A stretch of 36,856 nt of DNA from Flavobacteriales bacterium (GTDB lineage: Bacteria > Bacteroidota > Bacteroidia > Flavobacteriales_F > PHOS-HE28), in assembly GCA_044347005.1 (NCBI GenBank), contig JBIIYD010000003.1, forward strand, positions 1 to 36,856, given 5' to 3'. The notes below the pieces were generated by a model. It had not been told where the DNA came from and did no database searches. It saw nothing but the letters and a program-made list of their open reading frames with translations. The translations under genes were made by a program, and so were the position numbers. This document shows positions 67 to 26,709 of this stretch, piece by piece. How positions within the stretch are numbered: the stretch's first letter is position 1; every line of letters starts with the position of its first letter.

Positions 67-2503
67 GCAACGTGCATAGCTCATCACTTCGGTTCAAGCA
101 CGGCGCCTCCACCAACGCTCCGGCGCGCTTCGCCTCGTGCAGGTAGAACTCCGTGTGGTAGAAGCCGCCGAAGTTGTTCGCCACGGCCACCATGAACTCC
201 AGTGGGTGATAGGCCTTCAGGTAGAGGCTCTGGTAGCTTTCCACCGCGTAGCTGGCACTGTGGCCCTTCGCGAAGCTGTAGCCGGCGAAGCTCTCGATCT
301 GCCGCCAGATCTCGGCGCTCTCCTCCGCCGGATAGCCCTTGTTCAAGCAGTTGTCGAAGAAGCGCTCCTTCACGCGCTGGAACTCCTCCCGGCTGCGGTA
401 CTTGCCGCTCATGCCACGCCGCAGGATGTCCGCCTCCGCCAGCGTGAGCCCTGCGTACAGGTGGGCCACCTTGATCACGTCCTCCTGGTACACCATCACG
501 CCATAGGTGTCGGGCATGATCTTCAGCATCGCCGGGTGTGCCTGTTTACGCCGTTCGGGATCGCGGTGCCGCAGGATGTACTCGCGCATCATGCCGCTCT
601 GCGACACGCCTGGACGGATGATGCTGCTGGCCGCCACCAGCGTGGGGTAGTCCTCCACGTTCAGCTTCTTCAGCAGCATGCGCATGGCCGGACTTTCCAC
701 ATAGAAGCAACCGATGGTGTCGCCGGTGCGGAGGAGTTCGTTGATGCGGGGGTCGTGCTTGAAGCGTTCGATGGCGTGGATGTCCACCGCTTCGCGGAAT
801 GATGAATGATCAATATCCAATGTCCAATTTTCAATGGTCGCCTGGCGTGTTACGTTGTGGCCGTGTCTGCGCATGGGGCCAATTGAACATTGATCATTGA
901 TCATTGGATATTGGACATTGGCTTTCGTGCCCACCATCTCCACCGCATCCCGTATATGCCCCAAGCCCCGCTGGCTCAGGATATCGAACTTGTACAGCCC
1001 CATGTCCTCGGCCTCCAGCATGCTGAACTGTGTGGTGGCGAAGCCCTTCGGTGGCCGGTGCAGCGCGGTGTACTGGGTGAGGGGTTGCTCGCTGATCAAT
1101 ACACCGCCCACATGGATGCTCAGGTGGTGCGGGTGTTCGTGGAAATGCTCCGCGTAGCGCAGGATGGTGTGGGCGATGCGCTGGTCACCGTGGTCATTGC
1201 TCTGGTCAGCCTGGGGCTTGGCGTTGTCACTTCGACCGATCCACCGTGACCTTGCCGTATCCCCTTCCGCGAGTGCCTCGATCTCGGACGGTGGCAATCC
1301 GAAGACCTTACCCAGTTCGCGGACCACAGCGCGGTACTGGTAGGTGCTGTAGGTCGCCAGCAGTGCCACCCTTCGATCGGCGCCGTACGTGTCGAAGAGG
1401 TACTGCGTCACCTGGTCACGGTCCTTCCAGCTGAAGTCCAGGTCGAAATCGGGCGGGCTGCTCCGGCTGGGATTGATGAAGCGCTCGAAGTAGAGGTCCA
1501 GTTCGATGGGATCCACATCGGTGATGCCGAGGCAATAGGCGACGAGACTGTTCGCACCGCTGCCGCGCCCCACGTGGAAGAAGCCCTTGCGCTTCGCGAA
1601 GCGGATCAGGTCCCAATTGATCAGGAAGTAGCTCACGAAGTCCTTCTGCGCGATCACGGTGAGCTCGCGATGCACGCGCTCCAGGACCTGCTGCGAGGGT
1701 GATGGGTAGCGGCGTAGCAGACCGGCCTGTGTTTCGGTGCGCAGCAGTTCGAGGTCGGCGGATGAGTCCGTGCCCCACGTCCTGCGGTTCTTGCTCTTAC
1801 CGTGGGCGAAGTGCACATCGCACTGGTCCATCAGGCGGCGCGTGTTCCACACCAGTTCGGGCACATCAGCGAAGGCGGCGCAGATCCGCTCTTCGCTCGG
1901 GAAGCGTTGCGTGGCGGACGCTACATGATCCGGTGGTGTGGTGCTCAGCAGCGTGTTGGTGTCCACCGCGCGCTTCAGGCGGTGTACGTTGAAGTCGCGC
2001 TTGGCCAGTTGTTCATCGCTGCGGAAAGTGGCTGTGACCAGCGCGAGCAGCTTCTCCTTGTGTGTCATCCACGGCGAGAAGCGCAGGCGATTCACATCGC
2101 CGGGCCGCACGCCGATGAACTCGTTGGGGCGAAGCTTCTGCGGGATGTTCCGTGCGCCGTAGGGGTATATGATGAAGGCATCGGGGAGTTCCGGTGCCTG
2201 CTCCGGAAGCACGTCGCCATCGAGCAGTTGGTCCGTAAGCAGCGATGCCAGCTGATGCACACCCTCGTTGTTCCGCGCGATGCCGATGTACAGGGTACGC
2301 GCTCCCACCTTGAATTCGATCCCGGCCAGCGGACGGACCTTGTACTTGTCGGCCAGACGGAACAGGTCGCTCCAGCCCGCCGTGCAGTTGATGTCGGTGA
2401 GCGCCACCTGCTGTAGCCCCAGGTCGTGTACCTCCTGCAGCACCTGCTCGGGCGAGAGCACGCCGTGGTTGAGGCTGAACCAGCTGTGGGTGTTGAGGAG
2501 CAT
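1..2503 (-). CDS. dnaE2: DNA polymerase III alpha subunit, error-prone DnaE2-type (3' end beyond window)
   Basis: Manual translation from ATG 2503: MLLNTHSWFS..ALTDIN (PHP), GRGSGANSLVAYCLGITDVDP, PDFDLDF, KFDILSQRGLG, GCFYVESP, GVMVYQE, FAGYSFAKGHSASYA. No stop seen before the window edge, so it is absent from the ORF track. DnaE2 assignment rests on the dinB/LexA-like context. Confidence 0.92.
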   Translation of the reverse strand, partial: MLLNTHSWFSLNHGVLSPEQVLQEVHDLGLQQVALTDINCTAGWSDLFRLADKYKVRPLAGIEFKVGARTLYIGIARNNEGVHQLASLLTDQLLDGDVLPEQAPELPDAFIIYPYGARNIPQKLRPNEFIGVRPGDVNRLRFSPWMTHKEKLLALVTATFRSDEQLAKRDFNVHRLKRAVDTNTLLSTTPPDHVASATQRFPSEERICAAFADVPELVWNTRRLMDQCDVHFAHGKSKNRRTWGTDSSADLELLRTETQAGLLRRYPSPSQQVLERVHRELTVIAQKDFVSYFLINWDLIRFAKRKGFFHVGRGSGANSLVAYCLGITDVDPIELDLYFERFINPSRSSPPDFDLDFSWKDRDQVTQYLFDTYGADRRVALLATYSTYQYRAVVRELGKVFGLPPSEIEALAEGDTARSRWIGRSDNAKPQADQSNDHGDQRIAHTILRYAEHFHEHPHHLSIHVGGVLISEQPLTQYTALHRPPKGFATTQFSMLEAEDMGLYKFDILSQRGLGHIRDAVEMVGTKANVQYPMINDQCSIGPMRRHGHNVTRQATIENWTLDIDHSSFREAVDIHAIERFKHDPRINELLRTGDTIGCFYVESPAMRMLLKKLNVEDYPTLVAASSIIRPGVSQSGMMREYILRHRDPERRKQAHPAMLKIMPDTYGVMVYQEDVIKVAHLYAGLTLAEADILRRGMSGKYRSREEFQRVKERFFDNCLNKGYPAEESAEIWRQIESFAGYSFAKGHSASYAVESYQSLYLKAYHPLEFMVAVANNFGGFYHTEFYLHEAKRAGALVEAPCLNRSDELCTLHAAGHSPLAAGRTSGLPAASSQ
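797..921. repeat. Heptamer palindromic element E1, in frame inside dnaE2
   Basis: gaatgat gaatgat caatatc caatgtc caatttt caatgg / ~40-nt spacer / aattg aacattg atcattg atcattg gatattg gacattg; no stop in the dnaE2 frame (checked codon by codon). Confidence 0.9.
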
Positions 2504-2538
2504 GGATCACCTGATCGACGAATAATCGGACGATCAAT

Positions 2539-2555
2539 TGATCATAAAGTAGTCA
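2539..2555. promoter_or_regulatory. Candidate operator TGAT-N9-GTCA upstream of dnaE2
   Basis: tTGATcataaagtaGTCAtat; same spacing and flanks as 13421-13437. Confidence 0.45.
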
Positions 2556-2649
2556 TATTCCGCCACCGCACGAGCGCACTTTATCAGGATCATTCGCAAT
2601 GAACCTATGACGCAAAGCCGTGTATCTAACGGGCACCGACCTTTGTCCA

Positions 2650-4671
2650 ATGCGCACGCTGCTCTCTTTTCTCCTGTTGCTCGGTACCACGCTCCACGCC
2701 CAGCAATGGAACTGGGCCGCCAGTGCCGGCGGTGGCGGCAATGTGGACTTCTGCCACGGCATCGCCACCGACAGCGAGGGCAATGCCTACTGGGTGGGTA
2801 GCCTGGCAGGCATGGTGGATTTCGGTTGTGGCATCATCAGCGATGGCAACAGCGACGTGATGGGCTTCATCGCCAAGCGCGGTCCCGATGGCGCGTGCCT
2901 GTGGGTGCGGGCGATCACCGTGGGCTTCAACGATGCTTGGGCGTACGGGGTGGCCGTTGATTCGGCCGACCGTATCTATGTGACCGGCAGCTATAACGGC
3001 AACGCGGACTTCGGCAGTGGGGTGACGCTGGGCAGTCTTGGCAACGACGACATCTTCCTGGCCCGCTACGATACGGCGGGAATCTGCCTGTGGGCGCGGC
3101 GTGCAGGCAGCAGTGGCAGCAGCGATGAGGCGCGTGGCGTTGCCGTGTCGGCCGATGGCGGTGTGTTCATCGCGGGCTTCAGCGGAGGAACCACCATCGG
3201 CTTCGACGGCATCAGCATTCCCAACGCGGGGAACTTCAGGCAACTGGTGATCGCGCGTTATGACAGCACCGGCACCGTGCAGTGGGCGCGTGCGAGTACA
3301 GGTAACGGACAGAGTAAGAGCTGCCGCGCGATCAGTGTAAGCGGCGATCGGCTGTTCGTGACCGGACAGGTCGGTGCTTCGGCCGCGAGCTACGATGGTC
3401 TGGCCTTGACGCCGGGCGCGAGCGGAGCCTACCTCTATGTGCTGGCCACGGACCTGGAAGGCAACGGCCTTTGGGCGCGCAGCTACGGAAACGGCGACAA
3501 CGAAGGCATGGGCATCAGCGCGGATACCCTGGGCAATGTTTTCGTGGCGGCGCGCATGTGGGGCAGCCTGTTCCTGCCGGACGATACCCTTGCGTCGGTA
3601 AGCAGCAATGACGACATCCTGGTGATGAAGCTGGATCAAGATGGGGATCTGCAGTGGGCACAAAGCACCGGTTCCACCCAGCGTGACCTGGCTTGGGACG
3701 TGGAGGCCGATGGCATGGGCAATGTGCTGGTGGCCGCGCATTTCCAACAGAGCATCGACTTCTTCGGAACACCGTTCACGTCCCTGGGCGGTGAGGACAT
3801 GCTGATCGCGAAGCTCGCCGTTGATGGGCAGGTGGTGTGGGCATCACGCCCGAGCGGGTTCCAGCGGGACATCCCGCTATGCATCCACCGCCAAGCCTCT
3901 GCGCCCAACAGCATCTACTTCGGCGGGTACTATTGGGGTGCGATCACCTACGGCAACACCACCATCGATGACGTCGGCAACGGCGATGCGATGTTGATCG
4001 CGGGCATCGACACCACCTTCGCGGCGAGTACCTACAGCGCAGGGATCTGTCCGGGTGCGTGTGATGGGATCGCGCAGGTGTTCACGAACGGCGACGGTCC
4101 GTTCAGCTATCTGTGGAGCACCGGTGGCACTACGCCGGTGATCGACGGACTATGCGTCGGCACCTATGACGTGCAGGTGTTCGATTCGAACGGACAGGTG
4201 CGCACCGTTGCCATGGAAGTGCTGGAACGCGCTGATCCGGGCTACACGGTACAGGTGGACGGTGATTCGCTGTGGGTGATCGGCGGGGTGGCTTGGGATT
4301 GGTACCTGAACGATGACCAGTCGATCAGCGAAAGTTCTTCGGTACTCGCCTTGGTGAACGGTGACTACCACGCCCTAGTGACCGATGCCTTCGGTTGTGT
4401 ATGGAGCACGGATACGGTGCAGGTCTTGACCACGACAGTGACCGACGTGGAGGGACTGGGGTTGCGGGCCTGGCCGAACCCGATGGGAGAGATGTTGTTC
4501 GTGGAAGGTCTGCGCCCTGGTGAGGTGCTGGAACTGCTCGATGCCTTGGGGCGTGCGGTGTGGCGGGGGCAGGCCGTAGGTGGGCGCTCCGCGATCCCGA
4601 CGAATGGGCTGGCACCGGGGAGCTACTTGCTTCGGACGGAAAGCGGAGCTGTGGTGAAGCTGGTGAGGTAG
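2650..4671 (+). CDS. T9SS type A CTD secreted protein with SBBP-like beta-propeller repeats and a SprB-like repeat
   Basis: Signal peptide MRTLLSFLLLLGTTLHAQ; repeated D..GN.YVTG/DIFLARYD..G..WA units; CPGACDG..GPFSYLWS; CTD AWPNP...LAPGSYLLR...KLVR. Confidence 0.85.
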   Translation: MRTLLSFLLLLGTTLHAQQWNWAASAGGGGNVDFCHGIATDSEGNAYWVGSLAGMVDFGCGIISDGNSDVMGFIAKRGPDGACLWVRAITVGFNDAWAYGVAVDSADRIYVTGSYNGNADFGSGVTLGSLGNDDIFLARYDTAGICLWARRAGSSGSSDEARGVAVSADGGVFIAGFSGGTTIGFDGISIPNAGNFRQLVIARYDSTGTVQWARASTGNGQSKSCRAISVSGDRLFVTGQVGASAASYDGLALTPGASGAYLYVLATDLEGNGLWARSYGNGDNEGMGISADTLGNVFVAARMWGSLFLPDDTLASVSSNDDILVMKLDQDGDLQWAQSTGSTQRDLAWDVEADGMGNVLVAAHFQQSIDFFGTPFTSLGGEDMLIAKLAVDGQVVWASRPSGFQRDIPLCIHRQASAPNSIYFGGYYWGAITYGNTTIDDVGNGDAMLIAGIDTTFAASTYSAGICPGACDGIAQVFTNGDGPFSYLWSTGGTTPVIDGLCVGTYDVQVFDSNGQVRTVAMEVLERADPGYTVQVDGDSLWVIGGVAWDWYLNDDQSISESSSVLALVNGDYHALVTDAFGCVWSTDTVQVLTTTVTDVEGLGLRAWPNPMGEMLFVEGLRPGEVLELLDALGRAVWRGQAVGGRSAIPTNGLAPGSYLLRTESGAVVKLVR

Positions 4672-4690
4672 AAAATCTGGGATGGCCCCC

Positions 4691-4782
4691 GAATATCCAA
4701 TGATCAATGTCCAATGACCAATGTCCAAGTGCCTGAAGCTGACACTTGGACATTGGTCATTGAGAATTGGACGTTGATCATT
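4691..4782. repeat. Heptamer palindromic element E2 between convergent genes
   Basis: Perfect 20-bp stem caatgaccaatgtccaagtg (4712-4731) / 4743-4762, 11-nt loop, further degenerate heptamers outside; abuts the TAA at 4781. Confidence 0.9.
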
Positions 4783-7700
4783 ACTCCACCTTCTTCCTGT
4801 TATCCGCCGGCAGTCGATCGAAGAACAGATGGTCCGGATCGATCTCCACCGCACTTGGTTTTTCGCTCACCTGAAAAGTGAGCCTGTTCTCCCCGGTGTT
4901 CAGCTTCACGCGCTGTTTGGCCAGTGGCTCATCGCCCTTCTCCTTGTCCTTGCCAAAGCGCGCTTTGGGCTGCACGGCCACGTCCATCCAATCCGCCATG
5001 GGCACAGGCGCTTCACGACCCAGTGAATCGCTGTGCATCTTCTCCGCGGTGATCAACACCTCCACGGTCCAGCTGCTGTCGGCATTCATGCTGGCCTTGG
5101 CTTCGGTCACAGCGTTATTGTATAGCGTGATGTGTTTGATGTTGTCATCAAGCAGATACAGCAGACTGTCAGGCGTTATGGCACGCATGGCGCGGTACAT
5201 GTCCAGCGATGTGGGGTACGGCGGCTCGGCATAACCGAAGCTGTCGACCATGTGATGGAAGGCCTGATTCAACACATCCTCTCCGAGGAATTCGCGGAGG
5301 CCATAAAGCATCACACTGCCTTTGTTGTAGTGGATGTAGCCCTGGTTCTCCACGGTGAGCAGGGGCGATTCACCGATCGCCTCCGAGCCTCGTGCGTTCT
5401 GGTACTTATCGGCCTCGTACTTCATGAACTTGCGCATGTGCGGCCTGCCGTACTCCTGCTCCATCACCATCAGGGCGGTGTACTGCGCCATGCTTTCGCT
5501 GAGCAGTGTGGCGCCCTGCATCACGGCACCGATCACTTGGTGCGCCCACCACTGGTGCCCCATTTCGTGAGCCACTACATAGAACACCGGGTCGATATCC
5601 TCCGGCTCACGCAGGTCGGTGATGAAGCCGATGCCTTCACTGTAAGGCATCGTTCCGGGGAAGGCTTGTGCGAAGCTTGCGTAGCGCGGGAACTCGATGA
5701 TGCGCGCCTGTTTGTGTCGGTAAGGAGCGAAGTTCTTTCCGGCGTAAGCGATGGTCTTCTTCAGGCTGCTGAGCATGCGCGGCACGTTCACGCCATGGTC
5801 CTTGTGGTAGTAGACCTCGATGTCCACGCTCTGTCCAGAGCCCGTCGAAGGGTCGCCGAGCTTCTCGCGTGCCACCTCGTAGCGGGCGCTCATGAAGCTG
5901 TAGAAGTTCAGTGAGGGGTGGTCCACCACGTAGCGGAAGTAGCGCCGGCCGTTCTCGCTCCATTCCTTCACCAGGCTGCCTGGCGCGATGGCGATCTGGT
6001 CGGGTGCGGTACTGATGGTGGTGCCCACCTCCACCCAGTCGCTGTGGCGAAGCAGGTAGTTCTGCATGCGGTCCTCAGGGGCCTCGCTCAGCAAGGGCGT
6101 CCGACGGTTGGGTGGCAGGTCGTATTCACGGCGGTCGTTCTTGTCGGTAAGCTCGAAGTCGCTCTGGTATCCGATGCCGGGCAGGAGGTCCATGTTGTTG
6201 AAGAAGCTGCCGTTCTGAACGATGCCGGTGAAGGACACGTTGTTCTCGAAGCCCTTGGCCGCGTAGCCGCCGCGCACACTGAGGCGCAGGTCGGCGCCGG
6301 GCGCGAGGGGCGGGGTGAGGCGGTACATGCGTTGCTTCATGTCCTCGTCATCGAGCAACACGGTGGCACCTGGGATGTCCACTTGCAACCCTGATGGGTT
6401 CCGGTGCATGCGATCGGGCAGGCTCAACCACAACGTATCGATGGCACGGTCACCCTTGTTGCGCAGGGTGATGTCGGCTGTATACATCAGGGCACGCTTT
6501 TCGGGTTCCAGGTCGATGGTGAAATCCACCGCCATGTAATGCGGCTGGTGCATGCCCTCGTAGCGCTTGTAGGTGCGCTCATAGTCCACCTGCTGCTTTT
6601 CCCGTTCCTCGCTGGTGGTGTATTCATTGAGCACCTTGGTGTTGTAATAGCCCCAGCCGGCCAGGACCGCAAAGAGCACCACCAGGCCGATGGCCGGTAC
6701 GCGCGTGCTGGCGAAGCGCTGCTTCGCGTGGTGCCACCGCCACCGCCACGCCGTGTCGTTGCCCCGCACTAGGAAGAGCCAGCTGGCGTAGAGCAGGATG
6801 GCTGCGAAGATCATCCAATACACGCGGAAGAAGATCCATCCCGGCAGGAAGGGCCCGAAGCCGCTCATGTCCGAGTAGGTCAGGCCGGAGGAACCGTTCA
6901 GCTGTACGAGGTTGGACTCCACGTCCAGCGCGCTCCACCCGAAGGTGTTCAGCACGACCAGCAGGATGAACATGAAGTAGCCGAGGTACTTGTTGTTCAC
7001 CAGCACATGCACCAACATCGCAAGGGCGGTGAAGAATGCGAAGCCCAGTGTGGCTGGGATGATGAGATAGCTGAGGTACAGATCGGGCTGGATGCGGGTG
7101 TATCCGTTCAGCAGTTGGGTGACGATGCCTGCCAGTGCGGCGAAGCACATCACCACAAAGATCACGGTGGTCAATGCGGCGAACTTGGCCAGCAGCCCGG
7201 CGCCAGTGGAGGTGGGCAAAGCGTTGGTGATGCCATCGATGCGCGGCTCTCGTTCCTTCCAGATGAGCTGCCCGGCGTAGAAGGTGACAATGATGATCAG
7301 GTACATGAACAGGCCGCCCTGGATCACATCAGCCACGTTGTAGGTGACCGGGTACGTCTTGTTGCCATACAGCTCGGTGACGAAGCCCAGCGACACGAAA
7401 AGCTGCACCAGCCCGAGCGACATGATCAGGATGAACGGGGTGCTCTTCAGGATGCCCTTCACGTCCGTGAGGTAAAGGGAGGTGAACCAGCTGCGGCGCG
7501 CTCCGGCATCGAAACGCTGGGCCACCTTGGGTAGGGCTACTTGAGCAAAGGTGGTCTTTCGGTTGGCATCGGCCTCCAAGGCCTTGGCCTTCTGCACGCG
7601 TTCCGTGAAGGAGAAGCGCAAGTAGCCGAAGAGGAACACGCCGATGCTTACGGCGATCCACAGGATGCGGTTCCACAGCATCATGCCCGTGGCGGGCAGC

Positions 7701-8395
7701 ACCAGTGTGTTCTTGTCCTCCACGGTCCAGTACTTGGTGGCCACCTGGAAGGCGGTGCCACCGAAGGGGTCCGTCATCACCCCGATCCACTCGTTCTCCA
7801 GGTCGCTTGTGAAGGCACCGGCAATGCTGAAGCCCACCAGCAGCGCGATGGCGGTGATGAAGGCCGCCATGGTGTTGCGCAGCAGCACGCTCACGGCGAA
7901 AATGATGCTGGCGGAGAAGAGGACGTTGGGTATCGCGAAGAGCAGGACGGCCTGCAGGTGGTGGGCGAACTGGTTGGGACCGATGCGCACCTCGTCGATG
8001 CCGGGCCACATGCTGCCCACCACGAAGCCGATGCTCACACCCAGCATGGGCAGGAGGGCCACGAAGGTGCTGCCCAGGAACTTGCCGATGAGGTAGCTGG
8101 CCTTCGAGACCGGTGTGCTGAAGACGATCTGTGCGGTGTTGCTCGTGAAGTCGCGGATGGCCGTGGCGTTCACGAAGGCGGTGACGAGCAGCAGGCCCAG
8201 GGCGCTCCAGGTGGCGTACCACAGGTACAGGAGGTAGGGCGCGTTCTTCAGCACGTTGCCCACAGCCATGCCGATCTGCACGTTGTCGCTCACCACGGCC
8301 GCCCCCGTGAGGAAGGCGATGAGGGCGATGAAGATGTACGCCATGGGCTGACGCAGCCAGTAGCGCACCTCGAAGAGGAAGAAGCGGAGGGTCAT
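4781..8395 (-). CDS. ABC-2 type permease / M1 family aminopeptidase fusion protein
   Basis: About 12-13 hydrophobic helices in the N-half; C-half has HEMGH..LSE zinc motif and YIHYNKG; ATGA-coupled to the upstream ATPase. Confidence 0.88.
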   Translation of the reverse strand: MTLRFFLFEVRYWLRQPMAYIFIALIAFLTGAAVVSDNVQIGMAVGNVLKNAPYLLYLWYATWSALGLLLVTAFVNATAIRDFTSNTAQIVFSTPVSKASYLIGKFLGSTFVALLPMLGVSIGFVVGSMWPGIDEVRIGPNQFAHHLQAVLLFAIPNVLFSASIIFAVSVLLRNTMAAFITAIALLVGFSIAGAFTSDLENEWIGVMTDPFGGTAFQVATKYWTVEDKNTLVLPATGMMLWNRILWIAVSIGVFLFGYLRFSFTERVQKAKALEADANRKTTFAQVALPKVAQRFDAGARRSWFTSLYLTDVKGILKSTPFILIMSLGLVQLFVSLGFVTELYGNKTYPVTYNVADVIQGGLFMYLIIIVTFYAGQLIWKEREPRIDGITNALPTSTGAGLLAKFAALTTVIFVVMCFAALAGIVTQLLNGYTRIQPDLYLSYLIIPATLGFAFFTALAMLVHVLVNNKYLGYFMFILLVVLNTFGWSALDVESNLVQLNGSSGLTYSDMSGFGPFLPGWIFFRVYWMIFAAILLYASWLFLVRGNDTAWRWRWHHAKQRFASTRVPAIGLVVLFAVLAGWGYYNTKVLNEYTTSEEREKQQVDYERTYKRYEGMHQPHYMAVDFTIDLEPEKRALMYTADITLRNKGDRAIDTLWLSLPDRMHRNPSGLQVDIPGATVLLDDEDMKQRMYRLTPPLAPGADLRLSVRGGYAAKGFENNVSFTGIVQNGSFFNNMDLLPGIGYQSDFELTDKNDRREYDLPPNRRTPLLSEAPEDRMQNYLLRHSDWVEVGTTISTAPDQIAIAPGSLVKEWSENGRRYFRYVVDHPSLNFYSFMSARYEVAREKLGDPSTGSGQSVDIEVYYHKDHGVNVPRMLSSLKKTIAYAGKNFAPYRHKQARIIEFPRYASFAQAFPGTMPYSEGIGFITDLREPEDIDPVFYVVAHEMGHQWWAHQVIGAVMQGATLLSESMAQYTALMVMEQEYGRPHMRKFMKYEADKYQNARGSEAIGESPLLTVENQGYIHYNKGSVMLYGLREFLGEDVLNQAFHHMVDSFGYAEPPYPTSLDMYRAMRAITPDSLLYLLDDNIKHITLYNNAVTEAKASMNADSSWTVEVLITAEKMHSDSLGREAPVPMADWMDVAVQPKARFGKDKEKGDEPLAKQRVKLNTGENRLTFQVSEKPSAVEIDPDHLFFDRLPADNRKKVE
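5831..5852 (-). repeat. Short REP-like element CCCTTCGACGGGCTCTGGACAG, in frame (PSTGSGQ)
   Basis: Resembles the recalled CCCTTCGACAGGCTCAGG repeat type; sits in the loop EKLGD-PSTGSGQ-SVDIEVYY. Confidence 0.6.
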
Positions 8396-9282
8396 GCGGC
8401 TACGGTTTCGCGGTTGCTGCGGTGGATCGCCCCGAAGAACACGTCCTCCAGGCTGGGCTCGGCGCTGATGAAGCCATCGGCCGGTTTGGCATCGCTCATC
8501 ACATGGATGATCGGTGTGCCGGCCACCAGCTTGTTGCTGATCAGGTCGTGCGTGGTGGCATACTGCTCCAGCTCATGCTTGCCAATGGCCTTCTCCCACA
8601 CCTTGCCTTTCATGGCCGCGAGCGCATCGTTCGGCGCTCCGGCATAGAGCAGCCTGCCCTTGTTAATGATGGCCATGTTGCGGCACAGCTCCTGCACGTC
8701 CTGCACGATGTGGGTGCTGAGGATCACCACCACGTTCTCGCCGATCTCGGTGAGCAGGTTGTAGAATCGGTTCCGTTCACCGGGGTCAAGTCCTGCGGTC
8801 GGTTCATCCACGATGATCAATTTGGGATCACCGATCAGCGATTGCGCGATACCGAAGCGTTGCTTCATACCCCCGCTGAAACCGCTGATGCGGCGCTTGC
8901 GATGCTCCCACAGGTTCACCCGTTGCAGCAGTGCCTCCACCAGTTCCTTGCGCGGGCCCTTGTCCACCACGCCTTTCAGCAGGGCGATGTGGTCCAACAT
9001 CTCGTAGGCGCTTACCCGAGGGTACACCCCGAACTCCTGTGGCAGGTAGCCCAGCACTTTGCGCACGGCCTCCTTGTCGTTGAGTACATCGATCGTGCCC
9101 AGCATGGCTGAACCACCATCCGCTTCCTGCAAGGTGGCGAGGATGCGCATCAGCGTGCTCTTGCCAGCGCCGTTGGGGCCCAGTAGGCCGAACATGCCGG
9201 TGGGGATGTGCAGGCTGACATTGTCCAGCGCTTTCACGCCGTTGCCGTAGGTTTTGCTGAGGCCGTTGATGGTGAGTTCCAT
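8392..9282 (-). CDS. ABC transporter ATP-binding protein
   Basis: [26 protein letters not shown]; start moved to MELTING at 9282. Confidence 0.95.
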   Translation of the reverse strand: MELTINGLSKTYGNGVKALDNVSLHIPTGMFGLLGPNGAGKSTLMRILATLQEADGGSAMLGTIDVLNDKEAVRKVLGYLPQEFGVYPRVSAYEMLDHIALLKGVVDKGPRKELVEALLQRVNLWEHRKRRISGFSGGMKQRFGIAQSLIGDPKLIIVDEPTAGLDPGERNRFYNLLTEIGENVVVILSTHIVQDVQELCRNMAIINKGRLLYAGAPNDALAAMKGKVWEKAIGKHELEQYATTHDLISNKLVAGTPIIHVMSDAKPADGFISAEPSLEDVFFGAIHRSNRETVAA

Positions 9283-9420
9283 GGGGTGTGTGGTGGGGTT
9301 TGCAGGGTGCAAGATGGGGATCGCCGCCGGTCATTCGCAATGGATCACATAGGCGGTCGGGTTGGCGAGGTGACCGGTAGTGGGACGTGCGGAGGGAGTT
9401 AGGAGTTACAGGGCGGGAAG

Positions 9421-9510
9421 TATCGAATGATGAATGTCCGATATTCAATGACCAATTGCCCGTGATCACGAGGTCGTCATTGCATATTCACAATTGGACA
9501 TGGATCATTC
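9421..9510. repeat. Heptamer palindromic element E3
   Basis: gaatgat gaatgtc cgatatt caatgac caattg ... cattgcatattcacaattggacatggatcattc. Confidence 0.8.
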
Positions 9511-9537
9511 TTACTCCTCACACTCTCCTCTTCCACC

Positions 9538-10779
9538 TCACCGCCCCACGCGCTTCAGGTCGCCGCTGCCCACCACCATGGTGGTCACTTGGTCCGTGGT
9601 GTAGTTGACCTCTGCATCGCCCGATCCGATCACCTGGGCGCTGCCGCGCTCCGCAGCGAAGGCCCCTGCTTGCACATCGCCAGAGCCCGTCAGCGACACG
9701 TCCAGCTGCGTGGTGCTGCCGGCAACAACGATATCGCCGCTGCCCGCCAGGTCAAGATCGGTCCTCCCTTTCACCTCCGCATGGCGGCACATGATCCGGC
9801 CGGAACCCTGCATGTCAAGCCGCAAGGCGGAAAGGTCCTGCAGCGCCAAGGCCTCGATATCGCCGGAGCCCTTCACACTGAGCTCCATGGCTCCGGGCCC
9901 GGTAAAGCGGCCCAGGAGCGCATCACCCGATCCGCTCAACACAAGCCCGCTGAGGTTCGGCAGATGCACCACGACCCGCGTGGAAAAGCTGGACCCTCCC
10001 GGGATCTTGGCGATGGTCACCGGTCCGATCCACACCTTTGTTCGACGCTTGGGGTGGCCTTCTGCCTGGACCTCGCGGTGGTCCTTCTGCCTGATGGTGA
10101 GGGTGCCGCCCTTCACGGTGGCCTCCACGTATGGCAGTTCATCGGTCGGGCCGATGGCCACCACCGAGAAGGGACCTTGGTAGAATTCCACCTGGAGGGA
10201 GCCCAACAGCGTCACCTTCTCGAACCCGGTGAGGTCGAAGCGCCGCTCCGTTTCCGAGGTCGAGGTCGGGGCCGCAGCCATGGATCGCGTCGGTGCGGGG
10301 GGAGGCGTGGCTGAAGGCGCAGGGGAGGATCCGGCCGAAGGTCCAGGCACCTGCAGCGGCGTTGGTGCAGGTGGGGCGGGGTCCACCGCAGCGAATGGCG
10401 CATCGGGTGCCGGGTCCGCGGTAAGCACAGGGCGGACCTGCGCGGACGGTGTGGTGGCAGGCGTCAGTGATGCCGCTGGCTCAATGACAGCAGGAGGTGC
10501 CGGGTCGCTTTCAATGGCCTGCGCGGGTGGCGGTATGGCCTGTAATGCGGATGGCGGCGTGGTGGGGTCGGTGCTCAGGAAGTAGAGCACTCCACCGATG
10601 AGAAGTGTGCTTGCAGTGGTCATGAGGATGGTGTTGAGGTTGATCTTACGGTACCACGGCTTAGGTGGCGGCGGCGGAGGGAACTGGCCCACCCACTGTT
10701 GCACCCGGTCGAGGGTCACTTCCAGGGGAAGTGAACGGAGCAGATCAAGCTCCGGGGTTCGGCGATCGTGGACGGTCAT
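9538..10779 (-). CDS. Membrane-anchored GIN/DUF2807-domain protein, probable anti-sigma partner
   Basis: ATG 10779 overlaps the sigma TGA; short N-domain, TM (TLLIGGVLYFL), Pro/Ala linker, repeated GSGD motifs. Confidence 0.75.
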   Translation of the reverse strand: MTVHDRRTPELDLLRSLPLEVTLDRVQQWVGQFPPPPPPKPWYRKINLNTILMTTASTLLIGGVLYFLSTDPTTPPSALQAIPPPAQAIESDPAPPAVIEPAASLTPATTPSAQVRPVLTADPAPDAPFAAVDPAPPAPTPLQVPGPSAGSSPAPSATPPPAPTRSMAAAPTSTSETERRFDLTGFEKVTLLGSLQVEFYQGPFSVVAIGPTDELPYVEATVKGGTLTIRQKDHREVQAEGHPKRRTKVWIGPVTIAKIPGGSSFSTRVVVHLPNLSGLVLSGSGDALLGRFTGPGAMELSVKGSGDIEALALQDLSALRLDMQGSGRIMCRHAEVKGRTDLDLAGSGDIVVAGSTTQLDVSLTGSGDVQAGAFAAERGSAQVIGSGDAEVNYTTDQVTTMVVGSGDLKRVGR

Positions 10780-11336
10780 GGCAACAGGGTGATGAGGGTG
10801 AGCAGGGTGCGGATGCGGGCTGGGTTGGCTGTGGTGGGCCTGTCGCTCAGGAAGCCACGCAAGGCGGATCTGGCGCGGCTCACCCGCGTCTTCACCGCAC
10901 CCTCGGAGCTGTTCTGCACCACGGCGATCTCGGCCATGGGCAGTCCGGTCACCTCGAAGAGGAGGAGCGCTTCGCGCTGATCGGCGGGCAGCTTGTCCAG
11001 TGCGCGGTAGAGGAGCTGCACATCGAGCAGGGTCTCGGCGCTCACTCCCTGGGCGTGCAACCGCGCCATCTGGCGCTCCTCCACATCGGCCGTGCGACGG
11101 CGTACGCGCCAGGTGCTGATGGCCCGGTTGCGTGCCGCGCGCAGCAGGTAGTGCAGCAGCTCGTCGGGCCTTTCGATGCGCTCGAAGTGATGGAAGGCGG
11201 AGAGCAGCACGTCCTGCATCAGGTCCTCGGCGTCCATCCGCCCATGCGCCAGGGCCGAGCAGTAGCGGGCGAAGCGGTCGTGGCAGCCTTGGTAGGCCCG
11301 CATGAAGGCGGCCCGTTGGTCCTCTGTTGATGCCAT
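10776..11336 (-). CDS. ECF RNA polymerase sigma-70 factor
   Basis: DAEDLMQDVLL (region 2); LPADQREALLL..GLPMAEIA..EGAVKTRVSRAR (region 4). Confidence 0.92.
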   Translation of the reverse strand: MASTEDQRAAFMRAYQGCHDRFARYCSALAHGRMDAEDLMQDVLLSAFHHFERIERPDELLHYLLRAARNRAISTWRVRRRTADVEERQMARLHAQGVSAETLLDVQLLYRALDKLPADQREALLLFEVTGLPMAEIAVVQNSSEGAVKTRVSRARSALRGFLSDRPTTANPARIRTLLTLITLLP

Positions 11337-11360
11337 GGATGGATCGCGTTGCAAGGAGGT

Positions 11361-11388
11361 ATGTCGAGGTACCGGGCGAAAGGTTACA
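11361..11388 (-). promoter_or_regulatory. Candidate ECF-type (autoregulatory) promoter
   Basis: Minus strand TGTAACC-N15-CGACAT just upstream of the sigma ATG. Confidence 0.45.
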
Positions 11389-11468
11389 CGCAGGGTGAAA
11401 AATGCACCGCATGCCACCCACACCGCCCCCTCAGGCCCGCCTCGCAGGACGACCACCCAAGGGCATCC

Positions 11469-11726
11469 TTACAGGCCCTCCGCCCATTCCATCGCCGCCT
11501 TGGGCACCTCGTGATCGAATAGTTCGAACAGCTTGGGGATCTCGCCGCGCGTGAACAGGTCGTAGCTCTCCTGCATGGTGGCAAGGATGCGCATCAGGGT
11601 GCTCTTGCCGGCGCCGTTGGGCCCCAGCAGGCCGAACATGCCGGTGGGGATGTGCAGGCTGACATTGTCCAGCGCTTTCACGCCGTTGCCGTAGGTCTTG
11701 CTGAGGCCTGTGATGCTTAGTTCCAT
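11469..11726 (-). pseudogene. Truncated duplicate of the ABC ATPase 5' end fused to an unrelated tail
   Basis: First 53 codons nearly identical to 9282-9124 ([19 protein letters not shown]), then 32 unrelated residues; no Walker B. Confidence 0.85.
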
Positions 11727-11827
11727 GGATAGAATGGGTGTGTTGCGGGGTGAAGATGCAGCACCGTTTTCGAACAGCGCGGAGGCCATCCATGAACGGT
11801 GATGAAGTGGGATGGGCGGCGGTGCGT

Positions 11828-11920
11828 GAATTTCCAATGATCGATGGCCAATGTTCAATGATCAAGTTCGCATCGCAGGCACTTGAGCATTGATACTTGA
11901 GAATTGGACGTTGATCATTC
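11828..11920. repeat. Heptamer palindromic element E4, just after the dinB stop
   Basis: Shares a 23-bp identity ttgagaattggacgttgatcatt (11897-11919) with E2 (4760-4782). Confidence 0.9.
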
Positions 11921-11923
11921 CCA

Positions 11924-13150
11924 TCATGTTCTCCTGTTCGCCAACAACACCGGCGCCTGCCCATCAAAAGGGTTGTCCATCCGGCCGATGCTCTTCGCAT
12001 CCATACCGGCCGCGCGCATCACGGTGCGGTCGCCGAAGCGCTTGCGGATCTTGTCCATCGCCTGGTACAGGTCCATGGCCTCCTGCGTATCGGTGAAGGC
12101 ATCCATCTGGTGCCCGCCGCCCACCAGGTGACTGAAGCGCACGCCGATCAAGCGGATCCGTTGGCGCCGGTCGTAGAGCGTGCGGAACAGCTCGTGTACC
12201 GCGGGCAGTATGATGTGGTCGCAGGCGGTGTAGCCTAGGCGGATCTGTTTGGTGTGCGTGTTGAAATCGGCATAGCGGATCTTCACCGCGATGCAACTGG
12301 TGAGCTTGTCGCCCTTGCGCAATTGGAAGGCGAGGCTCTCGGCCATGGCGGTGAGCATCCCTTTCAGTTTCACCACATCGATCGTGTCGCGCTCGAAGGT
12401 GCGCTCCGTGCTGATGCTCTTGCGCTCGTGCCAGGCGATCACCGGACTGTCATCGATGCCGTTGGCCTTGCGCCACAGCACAGGCCCGTGCTCGCCCAAC
12501 AACCGATGCATCAGGTCCACCTGCAGCTCCTGCAGCGTGTGGATCTTCGCCACGCCCATGCTGCGCAGCAGGTGCGCGGTCTTCTCGCCCACGCCGGGGA
12601 TGCGCTCGATGGGCATGGGCGCCAGGAAGGGCTTCTCCGTACCGCGCTCCACGTACCATTCGCCCGTGCCTTGCTTGGCCTCGCCGGTGGCCACCTTGCT
12701 CACCGTCTTGTTGATGCTCAGCCCGATGCTGTTCGGCAGGCCGGTCTCCTTCACGATCAGTCGCCGCAGTTCGGTGGCCAGCTTCCAACTGCCGAAGAAG
12801 CGGTCGGTACCCGTCAGGTCCACGTAGAACTCGTCCACGCTGCTTTTCTCGAACAGCGGAACCTGCGTGCGGATCACCTCCGTCACCTCATCGCTCTTCT
12901 GCAGGTAAGCCCCGCTGTCGCCGCGTAGAATGATCGCATCGGGGCAGAGCTGCTTGGCCATCTTCATCGGCATTGCGCTGCGCACCCCGAAGGAGCGTGC
13001 CTCGTAGCTGCAACTGGCAACCACGCCACGGTCGCTGTCGCTGCCTATGAGTACGGGTTTGCCCATCAGCCGCCTCTCGCGCAGGCGCTCCACGCTCACG
13101 AAGAAGGTGTTGAGGTCGAGGTGGAGGATGGTGCGCTCGCCGTTTTCCAT
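11924..13150 (-). CDS. dinB: DNA polymerase IV (Y-family)
   Basis: HLDLNTFFVS, SYEARSFGVRSAM, SVDEFYVD, IPGVG, KSISTERTF, RLIGVR; start 13150 or 13171, both within a repeat. Confidence 0.95.
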   Translation of the reverse strand: MENGERTILHLDLNTFFVSVERLRERRLMGKPVLIGSDSDRGVVASCSYEARSFGVRSAMPMKMAKQLCPDAIILRGDSGAYLQKSDEVTEVIRTQVPLFEKSSVDEFYVDLTGTDRFFGSWKLATELRRLIVKETGLPNSIGLSINKTVSKVATGEAKQGTGEWYVERGTEKPFLAPMPIERIPGVGEKTAHLLRSMGVAKIHTLQELQVDLMHRLLGEHGPVLWRKANGIDDSPVIAWHERKSISTERTFERDTIDVVKLKGMLTAMAESLAFQLRKGDKLTSCIAVKIRYADFNTHTKQIRLGYTACDHIILPAVHELFRTLYDRRQRIRLIGVRFSHLVGGGHQMDAFTDTQEAMDLYQAMDKIRKRFGDRTVMRAAGMDAKSIGRMDNPFDGQAPVLLANRRT

Positions 13151-13222
13151 TCTACATTTTTCATTCATCATTTTTCATTCCCGTGGGCAGTGGTGAATGG
13201 CGAATGGTCACTGGTGAATTGG
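13140..13222. repeat. Heptamer element E5 overlapping the dinB start
   Basis: Minus strand: accagtg accattc gccattc accactg ... gaatgaa aaatgat gaatgaa aaatgta gaatgga aaacggc. Confidence 0.8.
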
Positions 13223-13240
13223 GGCCGCCTTAACGGGCTG

Positions 13241-13261
13241 CCTGCCTGCCGGACAGGCAGG
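13241..13261. repeat. CCTGCCTGCCGGACAGGCAGG palindromic REP
   Basis: One-base variant of the 20-mer at 14488-14507. Confidence 0.8.
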
Positions 13262-13420
13262 TTCGCTGTAGTCGGCTCGTCGGGTCCTGCGGGCGCGGGG
13301 CTCCGGGGTCACCTTCTGGCGTCGGTTCCTCCTCGCTCCACGCGCACGCAAGGCCTCGCCTTCGCCGGGCTGCCGCTCCCATCCCTGGCGGAGGTCCCCG
13401 TCCCACCAACAGTTCCATGT

Positions 13421-13437
13421 TGACAACATAATCGTCA
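13421..13437. promoter_or_regulatory. Candidate operator TGAC-N9-GTCA in the dinB / ORF6N-repressor divergent region
   Basis: tTGACaacataatcGTCAtat, in an AT-rich patch about 25 bp from a -7 box. Confidence 0.5.
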
Positions 13438-13461
13438 TATCGCGGTCAGTAAAATAGGCAT

Positions 13462-13469
13462 TACATTTG
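13462..13469 (+). promoter_or_regulatory. Bacteroidota -7 promoter element
   Basis: TACATTTG matches TAnnTTTG, 25 bp before ATG 13494. Confidence 0.6.
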
Positions 13470-13493
13470 TCCGTCGGATAACTGATCAGCATT

Positions 13494-14079
13494 ATGATGG
13501 GAACCCTGGCAGTCGGCCTTCCTCGCAAGTCCCCGCTCACGGACCTGCTTCCCTTGGAGTACCTCGTGGTAGCGGAGCCGCCAGTTCGGTACACGGCCAT
13601 CACCCCGCCCGATGCCGTGATCATGGACAAGATCCACCTCGTCCGGGGGCAAAAGGTCATGTTGGATAGTGATCTAGCCGACCTCTATGGCGGAACGGTC
13701 AAGACACTTAAGCAGGCGGTCCGCCGGAACATCGACCGTTTCCCCGGGGACTTCATGTTCGAGCTGACCATGGAGGAAGCGCGGACAGAATATCAAGTAC
13801 CGGCCCTTCGCCTTCACCGAACACGGCATCCTTATGCTGGCCAATGTGCTGCGCAGCGAGCAGGCGATCGCCGTCAGCATCCGAATTATCAGGGTCTTCA
13901 ACCGGATGAGGGAGGTGCTGCTTACACACCGGGAACTTCTCCAGAAGCTGGAACAACTGGAGGGTCGCCTCACGGGCCACGACGAGGAGATCCAAGCCGT
14001 TTTCGATCACCTTACGGAATTGGTCGCACCCGCCGAGCAGTCGTGCAAGCCCATCGGTTTCAAACCCGGCGAAGCATGA
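13494..14079 (+). pseudogene. ORF6N domain protein copy 1, frameshifted by an internal deletion near 13780
   Basis: KIHLVRGQKVMLDSDLADLY..FPGDFMFELTMEEA, then a different frame reads RGQNIKYRPFAFTEHGILML..KPIGFKPGEA. Confidence 0.85.
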
Positions 14080-14680
14080 ATACTACAATGCACACCTTGG
14101 TCATGGAGCCGCCTCCACCATACACGGTAATCGCCCCACCCGATACGGTCATTACCGGTCGCATCCACATCATCCGGGGCCAGCGTGTGATGTTGGACCG
14201 TGATCTGGCCGAACTCTATGTTGTTGAGACGAAGCACCTTAAGCGTCAGGTGCGGCGGAATCTCATCCGCTTTCCCGAGGATTTCATGTTCGAGATGACA
14301 TCCGCCGAGTGGGCCGCTTTGAGGTACCAATTTGGCACCTCGAACGAGGAAATCCTCTCAGAACGAGGTGGTTCCAAGGTGCTCCCCATGGCCTTCACGG
14401 AGCAAGGCGTGGCCATGCTCTCCAGCGTGCTGAACAGTGAGCAGGCCATCTTGGTCAATATCCACATCATCCGTGTCTTCACCCGCACCTGCCTGCCGGC
14501 AGGCAGGTGCGGGAAGTGCTCCTTTCGCATCGGGAGTTCCTCCAGAAGCTGGAGCAACTGGAGGGCCGCCTCACCGGCCATGACGAGGAGATCCAAGCCA
14601 TTTTTGATCACCTCACGGAGTTGGTCGCACCCGCCGAGCAGTCGCGCAAGCCCATCGGTTTCAAACCACAAGATCCCTGA
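14076..14680 (+). pseudogene. ORF6N domain protein copy 2, frameshifted by a 20-bp palindrome insertion
   Basis: RIHIIRGQRVMLDRDLAELY..PMAFTEQGVAMLSSVLNS; removing 14488-14507 restores FTRMREVLL..KPIGFKPQDP*. Confidence 0.88.
14488..14507. repeat. Perfect 20-bp palindrome CCTGCCTGCCGGCAGGCAGG inserted in an ATG codon
   Basis: Comparison with the paralogous copy 1 (ttcaaccggATGagggag). Confidence 0.9.
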
Positions 14681-14761
14681 TCCCCGCGTTCCAAGCAGCC
14701 GTCAACAGTCATAGTACATCGGACATTCCCCAGCAACCGTCAACCGTAATACACTCCCACC

Positions 14762-17958: not shown

Positions 17959-18001
17959 TGGAATATGAGCAGTGGACGGTTGATCGCCCCCAGGCCTGCG
18001 G

Positions 18002-23314: not shown

Positions 23315-23323
23315 GGTGCAAGC

Positions 23324-25600: not shown

Positions 25601-25611
25601 TCCGTCGCGGC

Positions 25612-26709
25612 TTAGATCTGGTCAGGACAAGCTTTGAAGCGAACCGGTATGGCAGGGCGTTGCTTGAAGATCCGCACGATCGCGAATTCGATGCCCCCGC
25701 GGTTGCGGCTTGCGGGCACCAGGTCGCTGGTGTTGATGTCGTAGCTCACGCCGAAGGTCCAATCGTCGTATTCGACACCTGCGTAGAGGTAGCCTGCATC
25801 ATTTGCTCGCCAATGCACACCGAATTGCACAGCCCTGTTCAAACCATATCGGTCCAAAAGGATGTAGCGCAGGTTGCTGCCCAGGGTCAACTCACGGAAT
25901 TCTCCCTGTGCCATGAACTGCGCCATCGGAAGCAGATCGAATCGCTCCTGGATCGGGAACTGGGTGGTGATGTGGTAGGTCGACCGACGATCCAATGGAA
26001 CGCCGGGTCCACCCAGGAAGCCGATGTCCGGCGTGGTCAGGTTGAATATACCTGCACCAGCTTGCACGAGCACACGATCACGGGGAGCATAGCGATAGAC
26101 CAGTCCGGCATTCACATCCGGATGGAGCAGTCCATCGCGTCCGAAGCTCTCTCCGGTCGGCAGGTCGGGGTCGTAGGTGAAGCCGTTGTACTGGTTGTCG
26201 AAGGAAAGCGCACGACCGTCCAGAGTGAGCGATGTGAATCCGGCCTGTAGTCCACCCGTAATGCTGTGGTGGCGTTGCGCACCGAAGCGCTGTGTCCAGC
26301 TCGCGCCAAAGCTCAAGTGGAATTGGTTCAATCGGCTATCACCCGCACGGTCGTTGAACAACCAGGCACCCACACCCAAGCCTTGCACCCCCAGGAAGTT
26401 CTTCGCGTCACCACCGATGCCCAGTGTGCGGTAGGGTACGGTCACCGATCGCCATTGCTGTCGGAATATCCCGTTGACCCGGTAGTCCCCATCGAATTGC
26501 CCGATAGTGCCAGGGCCCAGTGAAAGAGGCGCGTTGAAGAATTGGGAGAAGTGGATGTCTTGGGCGATAAGGGATGAAGTGCTGAGAATGAATGCAAGGA
26601 CCGGCACGGAACACCAAAAGAGCGGATGGCGAACGGTGAATCGTGAATGGACCGCTGCCGATGAGGCGGCCCCATTCGCCATTCGCCAATGACCATTCGC
26701 CTGCTTCAT
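25612..26709 (-). CDS. PorP/SprF family T9SS membrane protein
   Basis: AQDIHFSQFFNAPL, RQQW, GVSYDINTS, GGIEF; ATG overlaps the upstream TGA. Confidence 0.92.
   Translation of the reverse strand: MKQANGHWRMANGAASSAAVHSRFTVRHPLFWCSVPVLAFILSTSSLIAQDIHFSQFFNAPLSLGPGTIGQFDGDYRVNGIFRQQWRSVTVPYRTLGIGGDAKNFLGVQGLGVGAWLFNDRAGDSRLNQFHLSFGASWTQRFGAQRHHSITGGLQAGFTSLTLDGRALSFDNQYNGFTYDPDLPTGESFGRDGLLHPDVNAGLVYRYAPRDRVLVQAGAGIFNLTTPDIGFLGGPGVPLDRRSTYHITTQFPIQERFDLLPMAQFMAQGEFRELTLGSNLRYILLDRYGLNRAVQFGVHWRANDAGYLYAGVEYDDWTFGVSYDINTSDLVPASRNRGGIEFAIVRIFKQRPAIPVRFKACPDQI
26624..26700. repeat. Heptamer palindromic element E6, in frame in the PorP N-terminus
   Basis: ggatggc gaacggt gaatcgt gaatgga / spacer / cccattc gccattc gccaatg accattc. 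Confidence 0.8.

Follow-up and report, generated by a model that had tools for sequence, protein, structure and literature searches.

Seven heptamer hairpins and their host genes

The DNA considered here is a stretch of 36,856 nucleotides from a Flavobacteriales bacterium (hereafter the window, contig C210 of genome G000), which carries seven short hairpin elements, each made of two inverted arrays of degenerate heptamers. They lie within or next to genes for a DnaE-family DNA polymerase, an ABC ATPase, the Y-family polymerase DinB, and a PorP/SprF type IX secretion protein. The genome is a bin of 345 contigs (2.95 Mb, 60% G+C, 84.6% complete), and near-identical sequence to the window is contained in lake-water and freshwater metagenome runs. 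The presence of type IX secretion genes (PorP/SprF and CHU_C) suggests an origin in Bacteroidota. A set of 41 genomes (labelled G) with their orthologous loci (labelled L) serves for comparison. The elements and the genes around them are listed below, where z compares the RNA fold of the bracketed interval with 200 shuffles and a feature without a strand is assigned to neither.

2 to 2503, minus strand: DnaE-family DNA polymerase III alpha gene, in which elements 1 and 2 lie, with its 3′ part beyond the contig end; matches to Pfam PHP, DNA_pol3_alpha, and finger domains, and to PDB entries
1 to 66, minus strand: element 1, a GCCAGNN-type heptamer hairpin cut by the contig end; in frame at hot spot 2 of the DnaE-family gene, after ELCTL; z −0.7 (1–70)
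797 to 921, minus strand: element 2, a CAATGNN/NNCATTG hairpin in frame at hot spot 1 of the DnaE-family gene, where it adds about 41 codons after AVEMV; z −3.1 (790–930)
4691 to 4782, no strand: element 3, a near-perfect CAATGNN hairpin between convergent stop codons; z −10.6 on the plus and −7.5 on the minus strand (4685–4790)
9421 to 9510, no strand: element 4, a GAATG/CAATG hairpin with the ABC ATPase gene start on one side and a DUF2807 gene stop on the other; z −2.3 (9415–9515)
11569 to 11758, minus strand: the ABC ATPase gene's 5′ end in a second copy, with 88.5% identity to 9125–9316 (blastn)
11828 to 11920, no strand: element 5, a decayed CAATGNN hairpin that begins 3 nt past the dinB stop; z −0.09 (11822–11925)
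11924 to 13171, minus strand: dinB (Y-family polymerase; Pfam IMS, IMS_C, and IMS_HHH), flanked by elements 5 and 6
13140 to 13222, no strand: element 6, with a CATT arm (13143–13179) over the dinB start codons and a GAATGGN arm (13193–13220); z −0.7 (13135–13225)
25612 to 26709, minus strand: PorP/SprF type IX secretion gene (Pfam PorP_SprF), host of element 7
26624 to 26700, minus strand: element 7, a GAATGGN hairpin after an ATGA stop/start overlap, within the first ~30 codons of the PorP/SprF gene; z −2.9 (26615–26705)

Reading the sequence confirms all seven elements at the positions that an earlier note on this DNA had given. The layout described there, a CAATG/GAATG arm followed by a spacer and a CATTG/CATTC arm, holds for five of them, in which the 5′ arm consists of xAATGxx units and the 3′ arm of xxCATTx units, and fails for elements 1 and 6. 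In element 6 the CATT arm precedes the AATG arm, the reverse of all others, and its two arms are not of the same subclass; the whole has the look of two half-elements placed back to back. Elements 1, 5, and 6 fold no better than shuffles, and their arms share the repeat core while pairing poorly. A stretch of 23 identical bp had been claimed for one pair of elements, and it is present in elements 3 and 5 as ttgagaattggacgttgatcatt; these two are 78% identical across 92 nt (blastn, window against genome). None of the seven carries an open reading frame (ORF), no Rfam family matches the window at gathering thresholds, and no element is terminator-like in a terminator scan, although one call (13120–13151) touches the edge of element 6.

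The elements occupy gene edges and permissive protein loops, and in the latter they are translated. Among the edge copies, element 4 and the DUF2807 stop codon are separated by 27 nt. The copies inside genes add peptide loops, as had been proposed, and they do so in frame at two sites of the DnaE-family gene and in the PorP gene. In alignment with E. coli Pol III alpha (2hnh), residues 528–582 of the query face chain residues 576–591, and element 2 therefore lengthens a short linker; length variation together with this alignment predicts that the DnaE insert sites are surface loops. As read from the sequence, the element 2 units that in phase are able to give TGA are CAATAT and CAATGT, not the common CAATGA. 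A second DnaE-family paralogue, 31–37% identical, is present in all five congeners tested (G042, G051, G031, G035, and G040). The window protein reaches the cut-off of neither the replicative nor the error-prone NCBIfam model. If it is dispensable, its tolerance of inserts would be explained.

Genome-wide repeats and four-helix-bundle genes

The 2.95-Mb genome has 25 phased runs of AATG or CATT (at least three at 7-base spacing), and seven of these fall in the 36.9-kb window, which makes up 1.25% of the genome. A shuffled genome yields one such run and sixteen other 4-mers of the same composition yield 0–6, where the two that reach 6 (TGAA and TTCA) may themselves belong to the same repeats; chance origin is therefore excluded. 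Period-7 tracts of any unit number 104, with flavours that include CAATGNN, CGAACAA, GAGTGGC, GTGTGAA, and GCCAGNA. In a scan of the whole of G000 for inverted periodic arrays, an inverted partner within 1 kb accompanies 43 of the 104 tracts of period 7, 20 of 95 of period 8, 9 of 61 of period 10, 11 of 899 of period 9, 3 of 399 of period 6, and 0 of 15 of period 5. The repeat unit is thus mostly 7 bases long, with 8- and 10-base versions in existence. Merging the paired tracts leaves 32 stringent elements, of which 24 measure at most 200 bp and eight 200–1200 bp. The genome-wide period-7 search bears out the view that the window elements belong to a dispersed family.

Some of the paired arrays enclose a gene. 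Three AATG-class pairs with arms 400–510 bp apart each enclose one ORF, and all three ORFs match TIGR02436, the four-helix-bundle family of 23S rRNA intervening-sequence proteins, above its cut-off. A family search finds nine TIGR02436 genes in the genome, all above cut-off. Every one of the nine lies between inverted repeats (scores 28–49), each cassette having its own unit sequence, and in eight of them both arms reach a lag-7 self-match of 0.5 or more. The earlier note had asked whether some copies enclose such a gene, and for this family they do. The full-size form carries a four-helix-bundle gene between its arms, which is the layout of ORF-bearing 23S rRNA intervening sequences, here outside rRNA. 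Short and filled copies have arms of one kind of sequence, with identical stretches in places: a run of 25 nt in element 6, from position 13155, recurs unchanged in the right arm of a filled cassette on contig C192, and element 7 has 23 identical nt in common with a short copy on contig C72.

The association extends across the genus set, in which 39 of 41 genomes contain the family at 0–9 copies each. When the flanks of 30 TIGR02436 loci of the genus are compared with 54 shifted control windows, the repeat score reaches at least 30 in 20 loci and in no control, and 28 of the 30 loci exceed the control maximum. The best flank period is 7 in 22 of the 30 loci and 6, 8, 9, 11, or 4 in the remainder. 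Two cassette layouts are seen, arm-gene-arm and hairpin-gene-hairpin. At one orthologous site (L064–L068 versus L070/L071) the shared flank is 83–94% identical pairwise (94% for L064 versus L071), and different four-helix-bundle genes with different arms sit ~6–10 nt upstream of the same conserved host start codon. In L065 and L070, ~30 nt of the 5′ end of the host gene are repeated beyond the cassette.

Avd is a protein of diversity-generating retroelements and the basis of a hairpin-binding analogy. A weak hit to the Avd model was seen here, and, by that analogy, the four-helix-bundle protein probably binds hairpin nucleic acid.

Individual repeat families are spread unevenly over the 41 genomes. 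The GATCAGAN 20-mer family (at most two mismatches) occurs in 35 genomes at 0–60 copies per genome, with zero matches of the reversed-pattern control in every genome. Hairpins of the octamer GATCAGAN have expanded to 25–60 copies in G016, G041, G039, G051, and G047 and are absent from six of the 41. A CAATG 21-mer (at most three mismatches) is found in ten genomes, with 5–7 copies each in G000, G001, G002, and G050, while the three closest relatives (G017, G042, and G051) lack it; its reversed controls are likewise zero in all genomes. The copy number of a family therefore differs between genomes up to 60-fold. Patchy families and shared 23–25-mers together favour copying between loci over a purely local origin. 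The idea that each genome homogenises its hairpins to one class is not supported, as many classes occur in G000 alone, and the hairpins at the pair of sites in G017 have no long identical stretch in common.

Occupancy of orthologous sites

Congeners hold the same sites empty or filled with other repeat classes. This is most readily seen at hot spot 1 of the DnaE-family gene (element 2 in the window; after AVELV in congeners), which was read in 24 loci. An in-frame insert of 30–150 codons, of differing repeat classes, is present in 15 of these and an 11-codon insert in L014. Seven loci are empty, with a loop of 4–5 residues; four of them belong to the same genus and three to other genera. The remaining locus, L015 (G001:C8), has a ~56-nt insert with a TAA stop and a frame change and is the sole frame-breaking allele among the 24, the reading frame being kept in 16 of 17 occupied loci. 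The classes at this site are as follows.

CAATGNN: window
CACAAGN-type: G017 and L054
ACAAGAC-type: L055 and L016
TCAAGCN: L004
GGGTGCA: L005
CGAACAA/CAACTGA: L008 and L017
Octamer GATCAGAN arm: G051 and G042
Plain palindromes: L007, L009, and L014

Despite these differing units, the 3′ edge of the site, TTCCGCGAAGCG, is conserved in L001, L002, L016, L054, and L055, and with one mismatch in L004. Locus L016 (G006) contains four tandem copies of the hairpin plus the host AVELV codons, 435 extra nt that remain in frame, and the near-identical L055 (G035) contains one copy.

Hot spot 2 (element 1, after ELCxL) is filled in 17 of 21 readable loci and empty in four (L010, L013, L015, and L020). 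In the nearest relatives (G017, G051, and G042) it holds the GCCAGNN class, as in the window. A protein tree built without the inserts gives at least three state changes per DnaE site, and the empty pair L012/L013 is nested among filled lineages.

Other sites vary in a similar manner, and the proposed comparison of orthologous loci returns empty sites in some relatives at the DnaE loops, the element 3 site, the dinB stop, and the PorP start. In G017 the element 3 site is empty, with 3 nt between the two stop codons. Synteny with that genome stops after the ABC ATPase gene, in the neighbourhood of element 4, and its tryptophanase-like neighbour was not found in the present genome. The PorP start has a strong period-7 tract in 10 of 30 loci (one value being inflated by masked bases) and a short signal peptide only in the others; the ATGA stop/start overlap before PorP is conserved.

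At the dinB stop, 28 loci reach far enough to be classed by eye. Six have period-7 or AATG-type hairpins, two have GATCAGAN arms, seven (L023, L025, L029, L033, L045, L046, and L049) have a hairpin of AATGGAC units every 10–11 nt, and 13 have nothing obvious. Behind the AATGGAC hairpin of L023, L025, L029, L033, and L045 lies an ORF with a weak four-helix-bundle profile match. The ORF of L029 (~220 aa, the only one scanned) matches the TIGR04258 suffix domain with 54.8 bits and TIGR02436 with 23.1 bits against a cut-off of 24. On the other side of dinB, the dinB-side arm of element 6 is kept in L023, L024, L026, L027, and L028.

The dinB gene itself is 74–93% identical in congeners. The reading of dinB as a movable cassette was rejected because the surrounding gene order is kept in G051 and G042. 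In G051 the order dnaE, ABC transporter genes, dinB, and ORF6N gene is conserved, although the SBBP gene has no match there and the ABC-2/M1 gene is present twice. The earlier interpretation as a non-autonomous mobile family thus stands with respect to a dispersed family that has empty and filled forms. Its further part, that the elements delimit gene cassettes, does not, as the flanked genes are not shown to be movable and their order is kept in G051.

Pieces of host genes are duplicated next to several hairpins. The second copy of the ABC ATPase 5′ end (11569–11758) lies within a 189-codon ORF without a family match and is nearer to the ABC ATPase 5′ end of G051 (85.6%) than the region of the first copy is (~76%). 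Elements 4 and 5 are each located ~70–100 nt upstream of one of the two 5′ copies, and G051 has a 47-nt piece of the dinB 3′ end duplicated beside its hairpin. These duplications of host-gene ends suggest recombination or template switching at the arms. Candidate joints in metagenome contigs were left unused, as their short sides measure 20–50 letters and lie within conserved ABC-ATPase sequence; two of them connect the two 5′ copies of the ABC ATPase gene (9149 or 9180 to 11598).

In L025, L028, L029, and L030 (G031, G006, G032, and G040) the first ~30 nt of dinB (MERTILHLDL) are duplicated upstream; behind the duplicate come a stop codon, then the perfect palindrome GGGCGCATCATGATGCGCCC, and then the real start. 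A small insertion that duplicated the host-gene end could account for this, as could a leader peptide.

Interpretation and alternatives

The seven elements are probably ORF-less members of a genus-wide population of small selfish DNA made of two inverted short-tandem-repeat arrays. We likewise favour, with similar reserve, the view that they are ORF-less relatives of cassettes that resemble rRNA intervening sequences and that turn over at hot spots by a mechanism we infer. Turnover at hot spots fits better than free transposition because the same sites are occupied in many congeners.

The closest parallel is the intervening sequence in helix 45 of Coxiella burnetii 23S rRNA, which combines a 28-bp terminal stem with an S23p ORF and with tandem GACAGAT heptamers whose number varies; its stem is cut by RNase III, and the authors consider it a selfish element of unknown mobility (PMC4990558). 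The shared traits are (i) an S23p/TIGR02436 gene between stem-forming terminal inverted repeats and (ii) tandem heptamers of variable number in an arm. Unlike the 23S rRNA sequences, the elements described here lie between protein genes or in frame within them, and most copies lack an ORF. The window elements thus have the stem-forming terminal repeats of 23S rRNA intervening sequences and neither the ORF nor the location in helix 9, 25, or 45 of the 23S rRNA gene.

Rickettsia palindromic elements are inserted in frame into unrelated protein genes and are translated, with no known transposase (PMC10969869). In-frame insertion into unrelated protein genes is also found here (two sites in the DnaE-family gene and one in the PorP gene). 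The Rickettsia elements form ~150-bp families with a conserved peptide, without tandem heptamers and without a known gene-carrying form. Here, in contrast, related species carry different repeat classes in the same loops; this comparison is one of descriptions, and the host lineages differ.

The cyanobacterial short tandemly repeated repetitive (STRR) sequences are 7-base tandem arrays comparable to the TAACTGA arrays. TAACTGA heptamer arrays occur in Beggiatoaceae, Cyanobacteria, and some Bacteroidetes, mostly between genes and often a few bases from a start codon, and in a single genome 169 sets are counted as direct and one as indirect (PMC4679880). The likeness lies in 7-base tandem units, a mostly intergenic location often near starts, and a patchy phylogenetic spread, and the difference in that the present arrays are inverted pairs, form hairpins, and are tied to a gene family.

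[quoted passage not shown] Unlike REP/REPIN systems, they have no HUH gene flanked by the repeats and comprise many unrelated unit classes; unlike MITEs, they have no terminal inverted repeats of an insertion sequence (IS), no target duplication, and no transposase match in the 28 ORFs of the window. Integron attC sites, which work as hairpins, are imperfect inverted repeats at the borders of gene cassettes. The present elements differ in having no integron integrase above cut-off, no cassette array, and arms that are tandem repeats. A literature search that did not extend to subscription journals or supplementary files found no paper that links heptamer hairpins to the TIGR02436 family or describes them in protein genes.

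A tentative mechanism may be outlined for this selfish population. Copies would spread and replace each other at the DNA level by arm recombination or template switching, without a transposase. A hairpin-gene-hairpin cassette could lose its gene via deletion between directly oriented arms, which would leave one hairpin, and an existing hairpin could serve as the landing place for another copy. Slippage would alter the number of units, copying across the hairpin would maintain the complementarity of the arms, and selection would then filter the copies, with the frame kept in the polymerase gene. That these specific steps are jointly correct is rather doubtful.

Several points weigh against the preferred reading as selfish, mobile DNA. 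No enzyme was found, and none of the seven elements has a target-site duplication; neither does the empty-versus-filled site of element 3 nor DnaE hot spot 1. The four metagenome runs yield no contig with a clean excision or empty allele, an absence that says little because contigs drop rare variants. Genome G010 has hairpins at both DnaE sites and no TIGR02436 match, and the gene is therefore unnecessary for hairpin maintenance. That the same sites are occupied in a large part of the genus is also consistent with an old insertion evolving in place, and the deletion and landing-pad steps, drawn from the architecture of the cassettes, are less likely right than wrong. Finally, the sense strand folds better in only 4 of 15 loci at DnaE site 1, 8 of 15 at site 2, and 4 of 28 after dinB, and G-U counts are higher on the antisense strand, the dinB set including neighbouring coding sequence. 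This strand comparison neither proves a DNA-level role nor excludes an RNA role and is treated as uninformative.

Some of these points are shared by an origin in situ, a possible but unlikely alternative in which heptamers would expand by replication slippage, template switching would copy the opposite arm, and no movement would take place at sites that tolerate or use such sequence. It would account for the occupation of the same four sites in many congeners with units that differ by species, for the absence of both target duplication and enzyme, for the 3′ edge TTCCGCGAAGCG that is kept at hot spot 1 while units differ, and for the four tandem copies of hairpin and host sequence in L016. It is at odds with the 23–25 identical nt common to copies on different contigs, with the distribution of the 20-mer family (0–60 copies per genome) and the patchy 21-mer family (both with zero control matches), with the empty alleles L012 and L013 nested among filled ones in the tree, and with the location of 7 of 25 AATG/CATT runs within 1.25% of the genome.

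The elements might alternatively serve the host as RNA, as RNase III sites, as stabilisers of mRNA ends that uncouple neighbouring genes, or as A-rich arms that tune translation starts in an organism lacking Shine-Dalgarno sites. Their exact placement (3 nt past the dinB stop, at the porP ATGA overlap, and over the dinB start) is what such a role would lead one to expect, and precedents are the RNase III cut in the Coxiella stem (PMC4990558) and the Beggiatoaceae TAACTGA arrays, mostly within a few nt of start codons (PMC4679880). Cutting of the dnaE copies, however, would destroy the mRNA, whereas 16 of the 17 occupied loci preserve the frame. There is also no sense-strand advantage in folding or G-U pairing, three of the seven window hairpins fold no better than shuffles, and none of the seven is terminator-like. 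We regard this role as quite improbable.

Searches for an enzyme bear on a further alternative. The earlier note had reported no visible transposase or integrase, and the scan of the 28 window ORFs agrees, with no such family among them. REP elements are likewise short palindromes at gene ends, and movement in trans by an IS200-like HUH transposase of the REP-associated tyrosine transposase (RAYT) type would be conceivable in a genome with four Y1_Tnp (HUH) matches above the Pfam cut-off. None of the four HUH genes, however, is enclosed by periodic arms or flanked by period-7 tracts, as had been suggested for some copies, and the one on contig C172 has an unrelated inverted repeat. Together with the many unrelated unit classes in one genome and the commonness of copies within coding sequence, this renders a REP/REPIN-like origin very unlikely. 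That IS200-like gene (G000:C172:11805–12326) has its own ~64-nt inverted repeat, which contains the palindrome CCCATGGCAACGCCATGGG, and represents a REP/RAYT-like system of its own, with no relation to the heptamer hairpins. A similar suggestion for GIY-YIG genes did not hold: of two small genes, one has a non-periodic 22-nt inverted repeat and the other has none. In the genome, at 84.6% completeness, no reverse transcriptase was found, and the best match to the integron integrase model TIGR02249 scores 113 bits against a cut-off of 265, with similar sub-threshold matches in 14 of 14 control genomes.

That the hairpins are assembly artefacts of a fragmented metagenome bin, as its 345 contigs and a window contig that terminates within element 1 might suggest, has next to no probability, given that elements 2 (797–921), 3 (4691–4782), 4 (9421–9510), 5 (11828–11920), and 6 (13140–13222) are bridged by independent contigs of four separate runs from lake-water metagenomes, with 0–3 differing letters per contig piece, and that dozens of other genomes have orthologous hairpins; these five of seven elements are therefore not artefacts, and for them this reading is refuted.

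As members of a selfish population, the hairpins bring together the very large orphan family TIGR02436 (related to Avd), the long-noted excess of heptamer tandem repeats in some bacteria, and selfish hairpin DNA translated within housekeeping proteins. A wider proposition, which we hold to be unlikely, is that they are landing pads of an enzyme-light system in which cassettes would be exchanged by arm-to-arm recombination with the four-helix-bundle protein as a hairpin-binding factor. Intervening sequences of 23S rRNA, the bacterial excess of 7-base repeats, and in-frame polymerase loops would then represent one widespread mobile class. Four defined sites that are empty, filled, or differently filled in dozens of species constitute a natural experiment, and mobility and function are therefore directly testable. 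For annotation, the hairpins explain odd variation in loop length in conserved proteins, and they may explain contig breaks in metagenome bins, the window contig itself ending within element 1.

A few minor observations concern the sequence in and around the hairpins. The sigma-70 promoter consensus is not expected to hold in this lineage. Six of the eight sigma-70-like promoter matches in positions 1–14000 are inside hairpins (799–834, 4700–4767, 11890–11918, and 13149–13178), a consensus that is likely inapplicable here; units such as TTGGACA and TGATCAT mimic both sigma-70 hexamers, which is probably meaningless in this lineage. A possible second repeat near 13225–13320 (CTACAGCG...) was dropped, its count being 163 against ~115 expected and its copies mostly coding. 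Adjoining the dinB-side hairpin, positions 13494–14714 encode a 406-aa protein with two ORF6N (KilA-N-like) domains, which is kept in G051 and G042.

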